Below, in pieces: positions 4,089 to 13,540 of a DNA stretch of 64,000 nt (positions are counted from its first letter, which is position 1; the number at the start of each line of letters is the position of its first letter). Location of the stretch: IMG/VR virus record IMGVR_UViG_3300050505_000515. One strand, given 5' to 3'. The notes beneath the pieces were generated by a model. The model ran no database searches and was not told the DNA's origin. It saw only the letters and a list, made by a program, of their open reading frames with translations. This DNA is from a virus. Made by a program: the position numbers and the translations under genes.

Positions 4089-6334
4089 AGGCGCTCCCGG
4101 ACGGCATCTCGCTCGTCTCCGCGGCGTCGGAGACGGCGCCGGAGGAGCGGCGCGAGGTCGAGACCGGGCAGTGGTACTGGGTGACGCCGGAGGATTCCTT
4201 CGACATCGAAGGCAAGGCGGTCACCGCGCCCTACTTCGCGTGCGTCGTCCACATCGGCTCTAACTTCGTCGAGCTCCAGCCGCCGGGCAAGCATGCCTCG
4301 TCCGAGCGCATCCACACCGACGTCTTCTGGGACCGCGTCCGCTTCGAGCCCGACCCGGACGGCGTCATCCGGCAGCACACCTCGCACTACAAGGCGGAGG
4401 TCAAGCAGCTGCTCGCGCGCGTCCAGGCGGTCACGGCTGCGCTCGCGGTCGGACCGTCGCGGGAGCTCCGGGCCGGCGGCGAGACGGCCGCGCTCTCGCT
4501 CCGGCAGAGCGAGCAGTCGATGGACGACTACGGCAAGGCGCTCGTGACGGCCAAGAAGGATCTCCTGCCCGAGCTCTTCCAGGAGATCAAGCACGCCAAC
4601 GCGGCGCTGGCGAAGTGGATGCTGGCGCCGGCGATCCCGCTACGGGCCGAGGCCGAGAGCCACCAGGCCGTGATCGAGCAGATCGACGACCGCATCTTCT
4701 CGGTGGAGCTCTACGCGGGCCTGGTCGAGAAGGTCGAGCGCGTGAAGGACGGCGAGCCCGCGGCGATGGGAGACAAGATCCACATCATGCAGAGGCTCTG
4801 CTACATGGACGAGGAATGCCTCGCCCAGTACGAGACGGGCGGGATGGACTACAAGGGCATCGAGGACTTCGATGCGTGGCTCGCGAAGGAGAGCAACCTC
4901 CGGCGCCTCTTGCCGCACCCGCGCTCGGTCGTCTCGTTCCGGGTCCGGCGCGATCCCAAGGAGCGCGAGCTCGTCAACATCAGCGACTACTTCCGGATCG
5001 TGGCGGAGCGGGACCTCGACAAGCAGACGTTCCTCTACATCCGAAACGGCGGCGAGCTCTGGCGTCTCAAGACCGCGATCGAGTTCGGGGCGCGCCTGTT
5101 CCCCGACATGGCGCGTGGACCGAAGCGGGGCAAGCTCTGGGCAAAGCACTTCGGGCATCGCTTCCGCGACAACGAGGACGAGATCATCACCGACGACGAG
5201 TACCAGGCCATCGTCCGGGAGTGGAAGGAAGAGAAGAAGAAGACCCCGAAGGCGGATCGGTGGCACCTCCGGAGCGACCCGCGGCGCGAGTACGAGCCCT
5301 ACGACCAGGCGAGCGTCTACGCCGACGACATCGGCAAGAAGATCGCGCACCAGCACCGCGCCCAGAACCGGATCGCCCTCATCCTGCAAGGACTGCTCGA
5401 CCGCTCGCCGGTCTTTCACCCGCACCCGCCGTGGCAGATCTGGACCGAGGACGGCTACGAGGCCGCGTTCGAGCTCTGCTACGACGAGGCCCGCGCGCTC
5501 GTCGCCGGCGAGCGGCCCGACTTCGAGGCCTACCGGGCGCGCTGCAACGCGTCGCTCAAGAAAGGCGCCGTCACCGTGGGCCAGGAGTACGCCTGGCTCC
5601 GTGAGGAGGGCCGGAAGGAGTCGCGTCGGCTCGACCGCGACTGGAGAAACAAGAGCCACTACCGGCCGAGGATACACCAGCCATACGGCAACCCGGGGCC
5701 CGGCAAGCTCGCCAAGGTGAGCGAGTGGAGCCCGAGGTCAGGCGCGGTCGGCTACGCCTGGAACCGAGATCGCCAGGACTGGCGCTCCGAGAAGAGGGAG
5801 CCGATCCGGACGACGTTTTCGTGCAAGGCGGACAAGGTCCTCTGCGTCGACGGGTACAAGCCGGGCGACTTCCGGATCTTCTTCAACGACCCGCGCACGC
5901 GCTCCGAGTATCTCAAGTGGGCGCCGCTGCTCCTGGAGGCGGAGGAGTACCACGCCGGCAACCGCACGGCCAAGGAGCCGGTAGCGCCGTCGCCGAAGCA
6001 GAGCTCCTCGTACGAAGGCCAGATCCGCTACGAGCGCGCGCAGCGACGCAAGACCTTCATGAAGAAGGCCGTCCGGCTGCGCGAGGACACGCGGCTCAAG
6101 AACGGCACCATGCACAAGAAGGGCACGCTCTGGCGCGTGACTGAGGCCGAGCGCGGAGGCACGTTCGTGATCGTCGGCATCAGCGACGACGGCGCCTTCG
6201 AGAGCGACCATCGGGCCATCCGCGGCATGAGCTACCGCGACCTCTCGATCGACTCGGACATCCCGGCCGACCCGGACGAGGTGAAGAGGGCGAAGAGGAA
6301 GCCGCCCCCGGACGAGGACGACGACGATACGTGA
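4085..6334 (+). CDS. large hypothetical protein (about 750 aa) with coiled-coil N-terminal part
   Basis: long ORF, G/C-ending codons, GTG start overlapping upstream TGA. Confidence 0.8.
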   Translation: MKALPDGISLVSAASETAPEERREVETGQWYWVTPEDSFDIEGKAVTAPYFACVVHIGSNFVELQPPGKHASSERIHTDVFWDRVRFEPDPDGVIRQHTSHYKAEVKQLLARVQAVTAALAVGPSRELRAGGETAALSLRQSEQSMDDYGKALVTAKKDLLPELFQEIKHANAALAKWMLAPAIPLRAEAESHQAVIEQIDDRIFSVELYAGLVEKVERVKDGEPAAMGDKIHIMQRLCYMDEECLAQYETGGMDYKGIEDFDAWLAKESNLRRLLPHPRSVVSFRVRRDPKERELVNISDYFRIVAERDLDKQTFLYIRNGGELWRLKTAIEFGARLFPDMARGPKRGKLWAKHFGHRFRDNEDEIITDDEYQAIVREWKEEKKKTPKADRWHLRSDPRREYEPYDQASVYADDIGKKIAHQHRAQNRIALILQGLLDRSPVFHPHPPWQIWTEDGYEAAFELCYDEARALVAGERPDFEAYRARCNASLKKGAVTVGQEYAWLREEGRKESRRLDRDWRNKSHYRPRIHQPYGNPGPGKLAKVSEWSPRSGAVGYAWNRDRQDWRSEKREPIRTTFSCKADKVLCVDGYKPGDFRIFFNDPRTRSEYLKWAPLLLEAEEYHAGNRTAKEPVAPSPKQSSSYEGQIRYERAQRRKTFMKKAVRLREDTRLKNGTMHKKGTLWRVTEAERGGTFVIVGISDDGAFESDHRAIRGMSYRDLSIDSDIPADPDEVKRAKRKPPPDEDDDDT

Positions 6335-8646: not shown

Positions 8647-8895
8647 ATGCCCTGGTCGACCACGTCGCCCATGTGGAAGATCTCCGCCGACGACATCGTG
8701 AAGATGCTCCGCGGCGACACGACCGCCGCCGCCGACATGCTGCGCCGCCGCGCTCAGGCCTTGCTCGACGAGATCAACAAGTGGTCGAAGGATCACCCGC
8801 CGACCGACGACCAGAGGAAGGACGTGATCGCCAGGATCATGACCCTCTACCGCGAGACCCACGAGCACGTGGCGCGCGTCCGGCAGAAGCCCTGA
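8647..8895 (+). CDS. hypothetical helical protein
   Basis: follows upstream stop; typical codon usage. Confidence 0.5.
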   Translation: MPWSTTSPMWKISADDIVKMLRGDTTAAADMLRRRAQALLDEINKWSKDHPPTDDQRKDVIARIMTLYRETHEHVARVRQKP

Positions 8896-9058
8896 TGGCC
8901 TCGCGCACGGCTCGGCCGCGGCCGAGCTCGCCGCGGTCTTCAAGGCGCTCGGCGAGGACTTCGAGCGGGCCGACGCGGCTCCTCTTGCCGAGGCAGGCGT
9001 TGCAGACGTCGTAGGGGAATGCGGCGGGGGCTCCGCACGGGCACGTGGCGCTCTCCAT
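8837..9058 (-). CDS. small putative Zn-binding protein
   Basis: CPCG...CNAC; overlaps the convergent gene's tail. Confidence 0.35.
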   Translation of the reverse strand: MESATCPCGAPAAFPYDVCNACLGKRSRVGPLEVLAERLEDRGELGRGRAVREAIRASAGRAPRARGSRGRGS

Positions 9059-9132
9059 GAGAGGTATTCGCGGTCCGAGGGCGAAGTTCGACAGCGGGAG
9101 GTCGATTTAGGGACGAGCGGCGGCGTGTTTCA

Positions 9133-9225
9133 TGGACGCATCACCTCGCCGTACTGGGCTCTCCCCAGCCACCATGCGCCGAACCGCTCGTGCTCAGCGA
9201 GCCTACCACGATCGGATGGCGTCCA
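9133..9225 (-). ncRNA. possible second structured RNA
   Basis: TGGACGC[C]ATC pairs with GATGCGTCCA (bulged C); internal hairpins GCTCG-7-CGAGC and CTGGG-5-CCCAG. Confidence 0.35.
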
Positions 9226-9245
9226 CTCCTCCAGCCCACGAGGGG

Positions 9246-9399
9246 GCGTCCGAGTGGCTGGGCCGCGAGTAGGGCCTGATGCTCTACCTTTGAGCTACCC
9301 CGGAAGCTTGCGCCGTCGCCGGCGGATCCCCCGAGCGCGGGACTCGAACCCGCACCCTTCAGGTTTCGGTGTGCGTGTAGGGCCCAGCCGGCCGGACAC
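9246..9399 (-). ncRNA. circularly permuted tRNA-like RNA (YrlA-type Y RNA or permuted tRNA)
   Basis: T arm GCGGG-TTCGAGT-CCCGC precedes D arm GCTC-AAAGGTA-GAGC; CCTGA/TCAGG stem; acceptor-like stem closed by CGCCG-GCGA-CGGCG; terminal helix GGCTGGGCC/GGCCCAGCC. Confidence 0.7.
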
Positions 9400-9527
9400 G
9401 GACGGGATGCTACCGCGGCGACGCGAGCTCGGCAAGCTGCTACGCTCGGCGCGGGTTACCTGAGGCCCCACGCCCGCTCCGGAGAGCTCGACAGGATCGT
9501 CTTGAGCCCGAGAGAGCGGGTAGCGCC

Positions 9528-9977
9528 TCAGCCCGCGGCGCGGCCCGGGCGCCTCCGGTCGACGAGCACGCCGCGGACGCACTCGGAGATCATGGCGCGC
9601 ACGTCTTCGAGGCTGCCGGCGAGACCGTCGAGCAGGTAGATGTGCTTCCAAGGCGCCCAGATCGCGAACGAGTATGCGTACGCGCTCGTCGGCGTGAGGC
9701 TCTGCTTCTGCCGCGCCTCGGCCCGCCGGCGCGCGGCTCCGCTCGGGCAGGCCACGAGCGCGACCGCGTAGAACCGAGGCTTGTGGCCGCGGCCGACCTC
9801 GCGCGAGAGGATCCCGTGCGCGGCCGACCGGCGCGCCTGGTGCGCTGGGCCAAGCAGATCCCGGGCCCGGAGGCGCGTGCCGGCGACCGACGCAGCCGGC
9901 ATGAGCGCCGCGGAGAGCGGCGCCGTCGAGAGCTCCGTCGCAGCGTGGTCGTAGCGGTAGAGCCGGAGGTGTCTCAT
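9528..9977 (-). CDS. hypothetical protein
   Basis: ATG overlaps recombinase TGA. Confidence 0.55.
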   Translation of the reverse strand: MRHLRLYRYDHAATELSTAPLSAALMPAASVAGTRLRARDLLGPAHQARRSAAHGILSREVGRGHKPRFYAVALVACPSGAARRRAEARQKQSLTPTSAYAYSFAIWAPWKHIYLLDGLAGSLEDVRAMISECVRGVLVDRRRPGRAAG

Positions 9978-12900
9978 CGGAGCCCCAGCCAGCCGACGAG
10001 CGTCACCGGGCTCGGCACGTGCTGGCGCGCGTTCGCGAGGTAGCGCTTCACGTGCGGAGCGGCGTTGCGTCCGAATTCCTCCTGGAGCGGCGCCTCGAAC
10101 ACGCTCGGGGTCTCGCCGCGTCGCGCCTCCAGCTCTTCGATGCGGGCGCGGGCGAGCCGGCGCTCCCGCGGCGTCGACAGCGACGTCCCCTTCTCGACCT
10201 CCTCCTGGCGGTGGGCGTCCCAGGTGGCCAGGAGCTGCAGCGGCGGCGCGCCGCCGAGGCGGGACCGGAGCTCCGCTTCGAGAGGGGCGGGGCAAGGCAC
10301 CTTGTAGAAGACCCAGGTGTCTAGCTGCTCGGCCAGCTCGCGTGCGAGCGAGGAGCCTGCAAGCTCGGCCGACCTCGGGTCGAACCGCACCGCGCCCGCC
10401 TTCTTCAGCTCCCAGAGCAGGCGTGCGATGCGGCGCGCCACGCACTCGGAGTGCGCGCCGGTGTCCCTCGCGAACCGCACCTGGAAGTCGGGCTTGTGCA
10501 CGATCGTCTGCCGCCCGGGATCGTACGTGAAGAGGTCGCGGTAGTCCCCGGCCGCCGGCATCGAGCCACGAAGCGGCGCGCCCTGGCAGAGCGCGAAGAG
10601 GCCGAGCGCCTCGTCGTCCGCGGCCTCGGGACCGATCAGCTCACCGATCGTGCGCATGTAGAAGTGCCGGCGCAGATCTCGGCGGCGGTCGGCCTTGTCG
10701 GCCATTGCCTCCTCGTTCGGGTCGCCTTGCTTGAGGCCGGAGCGGGTCTTCTTCACGCGCTCGGCGACGAGCGCCTTGATGTCGACGTCGCGGCCGCGCG
10801 TCAGCGTCCTCGCCTGCGCGTGCACCATCATCTCCGCCTCGGCGAGCGCCTTCTGGGCGCGGCGCACGTCCTGCTCACGCGCGGTCCCGTGCCGTACGGC
10901 GCGCTTCGCGTCCTTGAGGTCGTCCTCGGCGGTGTCGTAGGCGCAGAGCAGGCCGATGAGGCCGGCCACCTCCCAGCGCGAGAGCGCCGGCGTCTTCTCG
11001 CCCGGGCCGCGCGGGAAGCGCTTCGTCCGGTCCGGGGGCGCGCGCCCGGTGAGGGCGTAGATCCAGTCGATGAGGTCGGCGCGGTCCTCGGCGGACAGGC
11101 TCGCGAGCGGATCCGCCTCGTCGTACCAGGGCATCTGCACGCGCGGATCCTTCGGGCGGAAGCCCGCGGCCGTGTCGTCCACCGCCCGGCCGACCCGGGC
11201 CTTCTCGCCGCCGCGGCCGCGCGCCTGCATGTACGTGTACGCCCGGAGCTTGAACCAGAGCACGATCATGTCCTCGCGGTGCATCCGGAGGTTTTTCGCG
11301 TGGTCGTCGACGAAGTGGGTGAGCCCGATGGGCGAGTCGTACGGCACCCAGGCGCCGCCGCGGGACTCGCGCTCCATGTCCGTCTGCTCCATGACGCCGA
11401 GCGCCTCTCGAAACCACGAGAGGAGCGCCGCGGCCGCGGTCGGGCCTCGGTCCGGCTCCTCGCCGCTCGACCAGCGCGTCCAGAGATCCTCCAGGCCCTG
11501 CCGGATCGATCCGTACGGGCCGGGATCGTCGACGAGCTGGAGCGGCGCCATCACCGGCATCTCCGGCTTGAGCTTACCGCTCGGGCCTGCCCACCAGACG
11601 AGGCCGGAGGCGCGGCTCACGTAGGTCTGCACGAGCAGGTCGTCGCGCGCCTCGACATCCCCGGCCGACATCTTCTCGGCGTGGAGAGGCTGGCGGGATC
11701 CGCCGGCCTTGCCGGACTCGCCCCAGCGCGCCGCGGTGTAGATCTGGTCGAGCGCGGCCGTGGACGGCAGCTCCGTCACGGTGAGGCCCGAGAGCTCCTG
11801 CTCGCTCGGAAGCGGCTTCTTCGGGGGCGGCTGCCGGCCGATGGCGACGAGGCGCTCCTCCTTCGGGACCGGCGCAGGCGGGGGCGCAGCCGCCGCCGGA
11901 GGGGGCATCACCGGCAGGACCACGGGCACCCCGGTCGTCTCGATGATCTCCGGGCGCCGCACCGGGGGCCTGGCCGGCGACGTGGGCACGGCCGCCGCCG
12001 GCGCGTGCGCTGGTGGTGACGGCGGGGCCACGAAGAGAGAAACCTGGCGCGGATCGCGCGCTTCCACGTACTGGCCGGTGGTGCCGAGGCTCTGGTGCCC
12101 GAGCACGGCCTGCACGACGCGGACCGGGACCCCGGCCTCGACGGCCGTGAGCGAGGCCAGGTGCCGGAGCCCGTGTGGGTGGACGCGCGCGAACTCGTCC
12201 GATCCGGGCGCGATCCCGGCCTGGATGGCGCGCCTCCGGAGCATCATGGCGAAGGCCTGCCGGCTGAGGCCACGCTCTTCCTGGGCCCGCGGGGAGTAGG
12301 CGTTGCAGCCCCAGCGGGCGATGGCGGGCAGGAGCGGCGCCGAGTCCTCCAGGAGGCGCGACATCCGCGAGGTCGTCCCCAGGCTCCGCCGCTCGGCCGC
12401 GTTGGCGAGCTCGGCGATCTTGCGCCGCAGCTCTTCGAGCGCTGCCACGGCTGGCTCCGGCAGCGCGAACGAGCGCGCGCGGCCGCCCTTGCCGACCACG
12501 GTGACGACGGGTGGGTCGCCGGCGACGTCGCTCCGGCGGAGCGAGCCTAGCTCCTCGGCCCGCAGGCCCGTCCAGAGGAAGACGAGGAGCGCGGCGCGGT
12601 CGCGCACGTCCTCGAACGCGCTGCTCGGCGTGGGGGTGCCGTCCTCCATCACGTACGTGGTGGCCAGCAGCTTCTGGAAGGTCTCGATCCCGGGCGTCTT
12701 GCGCGCGCGGGCAGCGGCCTTGTGGCTCGGCGCGAGCTCGACCGCGGCCGCGAGCGGCACCTGCCAGATGTTGTGCTCCAAGAGGGCCTGCTCCGAGCCG
12801 GTGTTCTCGCCGGTCTCGCTGATCCAGTAGGTCCAGAGCGCCGAGAGCGCCGCAAGACGCGTCGCCATCGCGCTGGCACGCTCCGGGCCGCGCGCCGTCG

Positions 12901-13540
12901 TCGCCTCCGCGACCGAGTAGGCGAAGAGATCCGGATCGAGCCGCTCGCCGAGCCGGCCGTAGAGCGTCGGGTCGCGGCGGCGGAGCTCCTCGACCGTGGG
13001 CGTGCGCGCGAAGAGCTTCTCCTCGACGAGGCAGGCGAGCCGGCGATCGAGCCCCGAGGGGTTGTCCTTCTCGATGGTGAGCACGCGGCCGCCGCCCGGG
13101 AGCGTGGTCACGAACTCGCTCCGGCCGGCGAGGCGGCGGCGAATGTCGGCGATGTGCACCCCGGGCGCGTGCTTGACGATCTCGTAGATGGCGTGGTCGA
13201 GCCGGCGATCGGGATCGCGCGCGAGCCGGTGCTCGGCCAGGCCCGTCTGCCGCGTCCGGAGCCAGTCGGCGTAGCGCTGCGCGTCGCGCCGCTCGATCCG
13301 GTCCGGCGTCGGCAGCCGCCCGTAGGTCGACTCGTACCAGTCCCAGAACTCCTCGATCGCGTAGCGGTACGAGCGCGCCGTGTGCTCGTTGGTGAGGCCC
13401 TGGAGGAAGTTTCTGAGGTACTGGATGAACCGGCCGGCCCGCCGCGAGTCGGGGCTACGGCGCCACGCCTCCGCGATCCGGACGAGGCTCGACTGCGTGC
13501 GCGCGCTGGCGTCGGGGTTTTGCTGGGCGAGCGCGGGCAT
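9974..13540 (-). CDS. very large XerC/D-like tyrosine recombinase with long C-terminal extension
   Basis: RDRAALLVFLWTGLRAEEL, GKGGRAR, HPHGLRH, VQAVLGHQSLGTTGQY (complete R-K-H-R-H-Y set). Confidence 0.9.
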   Translation of the reverse strand: MPALAQQNPDASARTQSSLVRIAEAWRRSPDSRRAGRFIQYLRNFLQGLTNEHTARSYRYAIEEFWDWYESTYGRLPTPDRIERRDAQRYADWLRTRQTGLAEHRLARDPDRRLDHAIYEIVKHAPGVHIADIRRRLAGRSEFVTTLPGGGRVLTIEKDNPSGLDRRLACLVEEKLFARTPTVEELRRRDPTLYGRLGERLDPDLFAYSVAEATTARGPERASAMATRLAALSALWTYWISETGENTGSEQALLEHNIWQVPLAAAVELAPSHKAAARARKTPGIETFQKLLATTYVMEDGTPTPSSAFEDVRDRAALLVFLWTGLRAEELGSLRRSDVAGDPPVVTVVGKGGRARSFALPEPAVAALEELRRKIAELANAAERRSLGTTSRMSRLLEDSAPLLPAIARWGCNAYSPRAQEERGLSRQAFAMMLRRRAIQAGIAPGSDEFARVHPHGLRHLASLTAVEAGVPVRVVQAVLGHQSLGTTGQYVEARDPRQVSLFVAPPSPPAHAPAAAVPTSPARPPVRRPEIIETTGVPVVLPVMPPPAAAAPPPAPVPKEERLVAIGRQPPPKKPLPSEQELSGLTVTELPSTAALDQIYTAARWGESGKAGGSRQPLHAEKMSAGDVEARDDLLVQTYVSRASGLVWWAGPSGKLKPEMPVMAPLQLVDDPGPYGSIRQGLEDLWTRWSSGEEPDRGPTAAAALLSWFREALGVMEQTDMERESRGGAWVPYDSPIGLTHFVDDHAKNLRMHREDMIVLWFKLRAYTYMQARGRGGEKARVGRAVDDTAAGFRPKDPRVQMPWYDEADPLASLSAEDRADLIDWIYALTGRAPPDRTKRFPRGPGEKTPALSRWEVAGLIGLLCAYDTAEDDLKDAKRAVRHGTAREQDVRRAQKALAEAEMMVHAQARTLTRGRDVDIKALVAERVKKTRSGLKQGDPNEEAMADKADRRRDLRRHFYMRTIGELIGPEAADDEALGLFALCQGAPLRGSMPAAGDYRDLFTYDPGRQTIVHKPDFQVRFARDTGAHSECVARRIARLLWELKKAGAVRFDPRSAELAGSSLARELAEQLDTWVFYKVPCPAPLEAELRSRLGGAPPLQLLATWDAHRQEEVEKGTSLSTPRERRLARARIEELEARRGETPSVFEAPLQEEFGRNAAPHVKRYLANARQHVPSPVTLVGWLGLR

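Follow-up and report, generated by a model that had tools for sequence, protein, structure and literature searches.

What does a phage do with an RNA in which the 3′ half of a tRNA precedes the 5′ half, when no gene for Ro60, the protein beside which such RNAs are normally encoded, can be recognised nearby? The question is raised by a stretch of 64,000 nucleotides from the IMG/VR virus record IMGVR_UViG_3300050505_000515 (hereafter the window). At 9246..9399 on its minus strand lies a predicted RNA of ~154 nt, made up of a terminal clamp and a permuted tRNA-like body, which an earlier note had put forward as a possible Y RNA of the YrlA type. Our preferred answer, offered tentatively, is that this is a stand-alone structured-RNA gene, a piece of accessory cargo in a large high-GC phage from soil or rhizosphere: a tRNA mimic that lacks the handle of Ro60-linked YrlAs, does without a phage Ro60 and may work as a decoy or an adaptor.

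YrlA is a Y RNA that mimics tRNA and is a ligand of Ro60/Rsr from bacteria and mycobacteriophages (Chen et al. 2014, PMC4201824). It carries pseudouridine 55 and dihydrouridine, and its members with a long stem undergo RNase P and CCA processing. It is defined by a permuted tRNA-like domain, by the motif GNCGAAN0-1G near the 5′ end, which is thought to contact Ro60, by a YUAY that starts the variable region, and by its location, on the strand of the Ro60 gene and no more than 4 kb away from it (PMC4201824). The YUAY and the CGAA-containing motif are features of both YrlA and Yrl RNAs, and the CGAA motif together with a stem-bulge-stem design are the stated Ro60-binding features (PMC4201824, PMC12135203).

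We read and mapped the element letter by letter (minus strand throughout) and found all the parts that the earlier note had listed at their places within 9399-9246. The order of the modules is variable loop, T arm, closed acceptor stem and D arm, all of them clamped by a 9+7-bp end helix. The body opens with the 3′ strand of an anticodon-like stem (CCUGA, 9363-9359), which pairs at 5/5 positions with that stem's 5′ strand (UCAGG, 9279-9275). A variable loop of 5 nt (AGGGU, 9358-9354) leads into a perfect T arm (GCGGG-UUCGAGU-CCCGC, 9353-9337), which was aligned to the T arm of both YrlA models described below, and then into the acceptor 3′ strand (GCUCGGG, 9336-9330). The acceptor end is closed by a linker (9329-9305) that does contain the GNRA hairpin reported before (CGCCG-GCGA-CGGCG, 9324-9311) and is 25 nt long, one more than had been counted. 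The acceptor 5′ strand follows (UCCGGGG, 9304-9298; pairing at 6/7 positions), so that the closed acceptor stem as a whole spans 9298..9336. The remainder of the body (9275..9297) consists of U8 and A9, a perfect D arm (GCUC-AAAGGUA-GAGC, 9295-9281), A26 and the anticodon-like 5′ strand.

The likeness to a tRNA extends to single bases. U54, U55, C56 and A58 are present in the T arm, as are A14, A15, G18, G19 and A21 in the D arm region. By inspection, all bases of the tertiary contacts U8-A14, A15-U48 (the Levitt pair), G18-U55, G19-C56 and U54-A58 are intact, and so are those of the base triples A9-U12-A23, G10-C25-G45 and C13-G22-G46. The element is a circularly permuted tRNA body with a closed acceptor end.

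In place of the anticodon loop, a large asymmetric internal loop leads into the 9+7-bp helix that joins the 5′ and 3′ ends. On its 5′ side this loop is a 17-nt single strand, CUACACGCACACCGAAA (9364..9380), and on its 3′ side the 10-nt CCCUACUCGC (9274-9265). Helix 2 of the clamp pairs GGCUGGGCC (9389-9381) with GGCCCAGCC (9264-9256), and helix 1 pairs GUGUCCG (9399-9393) with CGGACGC (9252-9246). Between the two helices lie the 3-nt GCC on the 5′ strand and ACU on the 3′ strand. Taken together, the clamp strands occupy 9381..9399 and 9264-9246.

Several tests speak for a real structured RNA at this place. No frame of the interval 8896-9527 gave a coding signal in a plot of GC content at third codon positions (GC3), whereas the flanking genes do show it; the element is therefore intergenic, and the possibility that the region might prove to be coding falls away. 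The leader-trailer duplex has a calculated energy of -34.2 kcal/mol, a value equalled by 1/5000 dinucleotide shuffles and by 26/1318 native segment pairs of the window with the same spacing (2%). Both clamp helices appear in the minimum-energy fold, and a fold in which the T, D and anticodon-like stems are enforced comes to -74.2 kcal/mol, compared with a minimum of -76.4. ARAGORN, which the earlier note had recommended, called 0 tRNA genes over the window; once the two halves were rejoined in silico, it called a canonical 75-nt tRNA cloverleaf.

At its gathering thresholds Rfam found nothing, and thus no tRNA match either. In a sensitive Rfam search of 351 nt the best family was YrlA (RF02553; 26.1 bits, E 0.0013), aligned at model positions 23-85 of 114, that is, over the tRNA-like core alone. 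The proposed comparison of YrlA with tRNA models thus came out for YrlA, at a score below the RF02553 gathering threshold of 69 bits. Accepted Ro60-linked phage YrlAs (those of the mycobacteriophage Bxz1 and of Gordonia and Streptomyces phages) also stay below 69 bits, with 28-52 bits on RF02553; because they fail too, this threshold is a poor discriminator for members from actinophages. We also used a covariance model built from 9 Ro60-linked actinophage YrlAs, with the element excluded (model R1). With filters off, the element was the sole significant match of R1 in the 128 kb of strand searched over the window (27.9 bits, E 4.7e-5, aligned at model positions 28-109 of 138), the runner-up reaching 9.4 bits. 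The YrlA topology that had been read from the sequence therefore finds support in both models.

One kind of sequence can imitate such a core. Like the element, junctions of neighbouring tRNA genes in phage arrays present a T arm and then, after 20-50 nt, a D arm, and they score 22-42 bits on R1, over the core only. Unlike the element, they are flanked by the remaining halves of two complete tRNAs, their strands belong to two different molecules and do not pair across, and they have no clamp. We therefore counted cross-complementarity, that is, the pairing of the acceptor and anticodon 3′ strands of the upstream tRNA with the 5′ strands of the downstream tRNA. The element reaches 11/12, compared with 2-9/12 in 51 distinct adjacent tRNA pairs, and ARAGORN detected no flanking tRNA halves around it in the window. 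On these grounds (11/12 cross-pairing, no flanking halves, a terminal clamp) a junction of two tRNA genes was rejected, and we regard the element as a dedicated permuted module.

As an observation of use to other surveys, relatives of the window phage (loci L188 and L191-L193, on an IMG/VR contig of 182 kb, and L158) carry arrays of 13 to >25 tRNA genes. The junctions in these arrays reach 42 bits and give rise to systematic false YrlA calls, which the cross-pairing count removes.

The ends of the element tell a different story from its core. In 32 Ro60-linked YrlAs from GenBank phages and IMG/VR we found a shared handle, 5′ GGGCCGGAG...CGGUUAY and 3′ CCCGG...CA(A)CA(U/C)G. Hidden Markov models of its 5′ and 3′ halves gave no match at the element; the top match of the 5′ handle model was a Y-like RNA in the related phage contig L125, to which we return. 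The element does have a CCGAA, from which the flanking G's of GNCGAAN0-1G are missing. With a match confined to the core and none to the handle, the label of Y RNA, in so far as it implies Ro60 binding, is not supported.

The same applies to the neighbourhood. As the earlier note had stated, no TROVE/Ro60 gene was found in the window, either in Pfam scans of all open reading frames (ORFs) of at least 396 aa with coding signal and of ~60 smaller ORFs, or with tblastn of the Ro protein of Bxz1, which returned noise only. TROVE was likewise absent from 5 related viral records, one of them a complete 143.7-kb genome. Among ~70 window ORFs scanned there were no DUF7873, RtcB, PNPase or ligase proteins. 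Canonical YrlAs, for their part, do stand beside Ro60, as had been said: of 12 viral contigs that have a full-length YrlA, 11 encode Ro60 at a distance of a few hundred nt at most, and the twelfth is cut off at the end of the locus. The element thus shares the architecture of YrlA and fails two defining features of the family; judged by its sequence, it probably shares YrlA ancestry as well.

The survey of Ro60-linked RNAs yielded some observations on other phages. In the Gordonia phage Mareelih (OP820470.1; L143:5227-5366), an annotated tRNA-Leu(gag) at 5227-5315 overlaps an annotated tRNA-Gln. Because it coincides with a YrlA match (RF02553, 52.1 bits at 5267-5366; R1, 101.9 bits at 5243-5378), this tRNA-Leu(gag) is probably a mis-annotated YrlA. 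A second YrlA-like RNA of the same phage lies at L143:5037-5170 (R1, 54.8 bits). The Gordonia phage Cashline (MW534378.1), a 52-kb temperate phage, has two tandem YrlA genes directly upstream of a Ro-like gene (L142:2189-2466); neither RNA is annotated, and the YrlA/Ro genes adjoin a tyrosine integrase. In the Gordonia phage GMA2 (NC_070761.1), a match to the Pistol ribozyme (L145:4991-5047; 56.8 bits, gathering 34.5) directly follows tRNA-Trp within a cluster of tRNA, tmRNA and YrlA genes.

Is the element likely to be transcribed? Upstream of it, at 9407..9435 on the minus strand, lies a candidate sigma-70-type promoter (-35 TTGCCG, 9435-9430; 17-nt spacer; -10 TAGCAT, 9412-9407), and the first G of the RNA (9399) is 8 nt downstream of the candidate -10. 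The site agrees with the consensus at 8/12 positions, the threshold of the scanner being 9, and we infer it as a candidate only. A hairpin without a U tract (GCUCG-CUGAGCA-CGAGC, 9186..9202, minus), ~45 nt downstream of the RNA, could possibly be a weak terminator. Simple promoter and terminator scans called neither.

Further support comes from the copies of the element, which proved to be near-identical ones only: loci L120/L129 and contigs in four other soil or rhizosphere runs. L120 is 94.7% identical over 245 nt, and its neighbouring proteins are 96-99% identical. Within the 154 nt of the element it differs at 5 positions, 4 of them in loops or the linker and 1 a change from G-C to G-U in helix 2, and A15 and U48 are kept. 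The hexamers TTGCCG and TAGCAT are identical in L120, with 3 changes in the spacer between them, and the downstream hairpin differs in loop bases only. The contigs of the four soil and rhizosphere runs show ~5 differing positions, of the loop or G-U type like those of L120. This pattern of substitutions and the fixed promoter hexamers fit an expressed, structured RNA, the numbers being too small for covariation. It may be added that an 87-nt segment between the stop of the upstream 149-aa ORF and the RNA promoter (9440-9526) is lacking both from L120 and from the contigs of two further rhizosphere runs; this indel ends just upstream of the -35 box.

Beyond these copies the element was not encountered. 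Exact and degenerate pattern scans of viral, metagenome and genome contigs returned only L120/L129 and unrelated tandem tRNA genes. Searches with blastn against GenBank phages and plasmids gave nothing useful, the window being absent there. In more distant phage relatives (9 metagenome and 13 IMG/VR loci, scanned with Rfam, ARAGORN and R1) the element is absent, and the core-type matches in these loci are all adjacent tRNA junctions.

These results allow us to sketch how the handle-less tRNA mimic might work. The RNA would be transcribed from its own promoter and would fold into an L-shaped tRNA body seated on a rigid double-stranded rod of 16 bp. The tRNA-shaped body would then be offered to host or phage proteins that recognise tRNA shape, candidate partners being RNase P, the CCA-adding enzyme, T-loop/D-loop modification enzymes and a tRNA-targeting host defence factor. 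Cleavage by RNase P 5′ of U9304 seems likely because the acceptor stem has seven positions, as in the YrlA of M. smegmatis, which has a seven-pair acceptor stem, is an RNase P substrate and receives CCA (PMC4201824). Such a cut would produce a two-piece RNA whose parts are kept together by the clamp. In either form, the RNA would act without a phage Ro60, as a decoy or an adaptor.

A bolder version, which we consider possible and more doubtful, is that the element represents a class of phage-borne permuted tRNA mimics that have shed the handle and become independent of Ro60, acting as decoys for a defence factor or as two-piece partner recruiters made by RNase P. If this were true, the decoy would soak up a host defence factor that recognises the tRNA elbow and the acceptor-T minihelix.

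A number of points weigh against a handle-less mimic that needs no Ro60. The window covers 64 kb, compared with genomes of 140-180 kb in its relatives, and a Ro60 gene could lie outside it; no interacting protein was identified. The copies are near-identical only and effectively form one lineage, with no compensatory changes to compare, and the flanks are nearly as conserved as the element itself. Among the runs listed for the stretch there is no RNA run and so no transcript evidence. The folding energy of the whole sequence is ordinary (z = -1.14), and the R1 score taken alone is weak, because tRNA junctions reach comparable values. The CCGAA in the 5′ internal loop and the YUAY after helix 2 hint at Y RNA ancestry. 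A third hint of this kind is that the promoter and 5′ end of the element resemble those of the Y-like RNA of L125 (local alignment; 1/500 shuffles reach an equal score).

The last two points lead to the rival that survives best, which we nevertheless regard as rather unlikely: a genuine Y RNA of the YrlA class, served in trans by a Ro60/Rsr that comes from the host or is encoded in the phage genome beyond the window, and tethering this protein to PNPase as in Deinococcus, Salmonella and the Thermus phage phiLo. Its overall architecture is that of YrlA. Read from the sequence, the YUAY is CUAC (9380-9377), directly 3′ of the 5′ strand of helix 2, and the CCGAA of the large 5′ internal loop lies at 9369-9365. 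By eye, GCCGG (9392-9388) can be found where the two clamp helices meet; Ro60-linked RNAs have GCCGGA at this place. The look-alike of a deformylase encoded in the window hints weakly at an actinobacterial host, and many actinobacteria have Rsr (PMC4201824).

The metagenome contig L125/L151 gives this rival additional weight. It is related to the window phage (36% identity in a large recombinase, the same VldE-like neighbour), and at L125:3994-4069 it encodes an RNA with a canonical handle (GGGCCGGA-stem-CGGUUAC; R1, 22.2 bits) and no permuted core. The surrounding segment L125:3960-4190 is the same as L151:13650-13880, and the RNA is preceded by a clean terminator and a TTGACG-17-TAGCCT promoter. 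Next to it stands a tRNA-like sequence in normal order (acceptor GGCGAGG/CCUCGCC, D arm, T arm, encoded G-CCA end), which has a handle-like GCCGAUCGG...GGUUAUC immediately ahead of its T arm and was not called by ARAGORN. The locus also contains, ~3 kb upstream, genes for a tmRNA and a tRNA-Met. No TROVE gene was called within 23 kb of the L125 RNA. The L125 RNA therefore has the handle without the permuted core, whereas the element of the window has the core without the handle. This suggests that phages of this group carry genes derived from Y RNAs and no Ro60 of their own, and it leaves room for the use of a host Ro60.

What lowers our estimate for a Y RNA served in trans is the element itself. 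The handle profiles miss it, both covariance models align its core alone, and it has no 3′ handle motif CA(A)CA(U/C)G. The region presumed to bind Ro60 is an almost perfect duplex and not a bulged loop. Moreover, each full-length YrlA that could be checked adjoins its own Ro60.

Could the element instead be a decaying, functionless remnant of two adjacent copies of one tRNA gene that have lost their outer halves? Relatives with long tRNA arrays would supply the starting material, the junctions in such arrays score like the element on the YrlA models, and neither covariation nor expression evidence speaks for a function. There are also traces that fit a duplication: the leader contains a degenerate copy of the acceptor 5′ strand (UCCGUGU, compared with UCCGGGG), and a repeat, GGCCCUACNCGC, flanks the core. 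Nevertheless, we consider a dead remnant improbable. Both junction-spanning stems pair (the 11/12 count), unlike those of all 51 real junctions; a 16-bp clamp that 1/5000 shuffles equal is not something that decay would create; and every base needed for the tertiary contacts has survived. A promoter-like site with conserved hexamers stands at the right distance, and changes between the copies avoid paired bases. Besides, an origin by duplication is compatible with a present function, YrlA itself having probably arisen from tRNA. A duplicated tRNA may well have been the ancestor of the dedicated permuted module.

For many integrases the attachment site is a tRNA gene, and the element lies 575 nt downstream of a tyrosine recombinase of 1188 aa. 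One might take it for an attachment site derived from a tRNA, or for a piece of a host tRNA gene, that serves this enzyme. We find this very hard to credit. The 22 nt of the T arm and acceptor 3′ strand have no exact match in 185,579 species genomes (the host is not identified), and the wider permuted pattern occurs in none of the species genomes scanned. An attachment site would leave the following 5′ half, the closed acceptor and the clamp unexplained. In addition, the recombinase is conserved in relatives that lack the element, one of which is a complete genome with direct terminal repeats.

Just as remote is a circularly permuted tRNA gene of the Cyanidioschyzon type that would mature into an amber suppressor tRNA with the anticodon CUA: ARAGORN does call a tRNA(cta) cloverleaf if the halves are joined with the 7 nt after the 5′ half, but in the loop CCCUACU positions 33 and 37 are both C, where U33 and a purine at 37 are near-universal, 17 extra nt remain on the 5′ side of the junction, the first base would be U1, positions 7:66 form a G-G mismatch, and no splicing endonuclease pathway for permuted tRNAs is known in bacteria. 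Signs of TAG recoding were not noticed either, although no search was aimed at them.

The genes around the element provide its context. The RNA lies 129 nt downstream of a co-oriented pair on the minus strand, namely the tyrosine recombinase (9974-13540; PF00589, 7.5e-22) and an ORF of 149 aa (9528-9977) that belongs to no Pfam or PHROG family, and it faces a block of plus-strand genes ending at 8895. The 149-aa ORF was considered as a specific partner and rejected, since it has no known family and its homologs stand beside the recombinase in relatives without the RNA. The pair is thus context and not a set of partners. Homologs of the 149-aa ORF and a convergent VldE-like gene are conserved beside the recombinase in relatives and the RNA is not, which places the RNA in a variable cargo slot.

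The recombinase belongs to a family (window 9974-13540; L120-L128, L152-L164) of proteins of 1140-1370 aa with a conserved C-terminal region of ~650 aa that contains no known domain; HSECVARR is among the invariant motifs of the family. As a rule its gene has a homolog of the 149-aa ORF after it and a VldE-like gene facing it. Homologs were found solely in metagenomes and in IMG/VR viral contigs of up to 182 kb, and one relative that bears the recombinase is the complete 143.7-kb genome, which has direct terminal repeats. With such relatives on IMG/VR viral contigs, the contig is phage-like as judged from its sequence.

The window, ~71% GC and derived from a rhizosphere metagenome, reads by its gene content as a non-structural part of a large phage. 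Its predicted proteins include a UvrD helicase, an SNF2 helicase, methyltransferases, a RusA-like resolvase, an M15 peptidase with a peptidoglycan-binding domain and an SLT transglycosylase. They also include an accessory set that is unusual for a phage (26012-26869, 31447-32226, 44634-45422; 2552-3352; 33716-36032; 56477-58254), consisting of three PAPS-reductase-like proteins, a Mom-like protein of the Mom family, a MoxR-VWA pair, a peptide deformylase, a DSP-type phosphatase and a stand-alone response regulator. The guess of an actinobacterial host made above from the deformylase is a weak one.

Why would a handle-less mimic matter? Until now, adjacency to Ro60 has been what defines RNAs of the YrlA type, and the published surveys covered TROVE-bearing genomes only (PMC4201824). 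A handle-less YrlA-like mimic in phages without Ro60 would mean either that the permuted tRNA module serves some function by itself or that these phages exploit the Ro60 of the host. Either answer bears on the question, raised by Chen et al., of what the tRNA-like domain does in bacterial Y RNAs. If the bolder version given above is true, the element and the L125 RNA together would show a group of large soil phages using Y-RNA-derived modules while having no Ro60 gene themselves. The element is, in addition, small and self-contained.

It remains to set the element beside the systems that it resembles. In permuted tRNA genes of Cyanidioschyzon merolae and some archaea the 3′ half likewise comes before the 5′ half, a linker joins the acceptor ends, and leader and trailer pair; the element shares all three of these traits. 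Genes of this type yield functional tRNAs by way of a bulge-helix-bulge motif and a splicing endonuclease, whereas the would-be anticodon loop of the element is non-canonical and its system is that of bacteria or phages.

A second comparison is with Yrl1 and Yrl2 of the Thermus phage phiLo, which lie directly upstream of the phage's own Ro60 and for which binding has been shown (PMC12135203). Here, in contrast, there is no Ro60 gene, and the element is known from its sequence alone.

The closest known system is YrlA itself. The two share the order of parts (a helix of the 5′ and 3′ ends, YUAY, variable region, T arm, closed acceptor, D arm and again the helix), near-invariant sequences of the T and D arms, and the bases of the tRNA tertiary contacts, including the A15:U48 Levitt pair. 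With the YrlAs of M. smegmatis and Bxz1 the element also has in common the long acceptor stem of seven positions, and with Ro60-linked actinophage YrlAs such as that of Bxz1 the long insert in the acceptor closure. It differs from YrlA in lacking the handle GGGCCGGAG...CGGUUAY / CCCGG...CA(A)CA(U/C)G; in its clamp, an almost perfect 16-bp duplex with a 3x3 internal loop; and in an anticodon-like stem of a full 5 bp with no V hairpin. Whereas YrlAs keep to the strand of Ro60 and stay less than 4 kb from it, around the element no Ro60 lies in the 9 kb to one side or in the 54 kb to the other. In phages, YrlAs next to Ro60 are well known (PMC4201824, PMC12135203); a version with neither the handle nor Ro60 is new.

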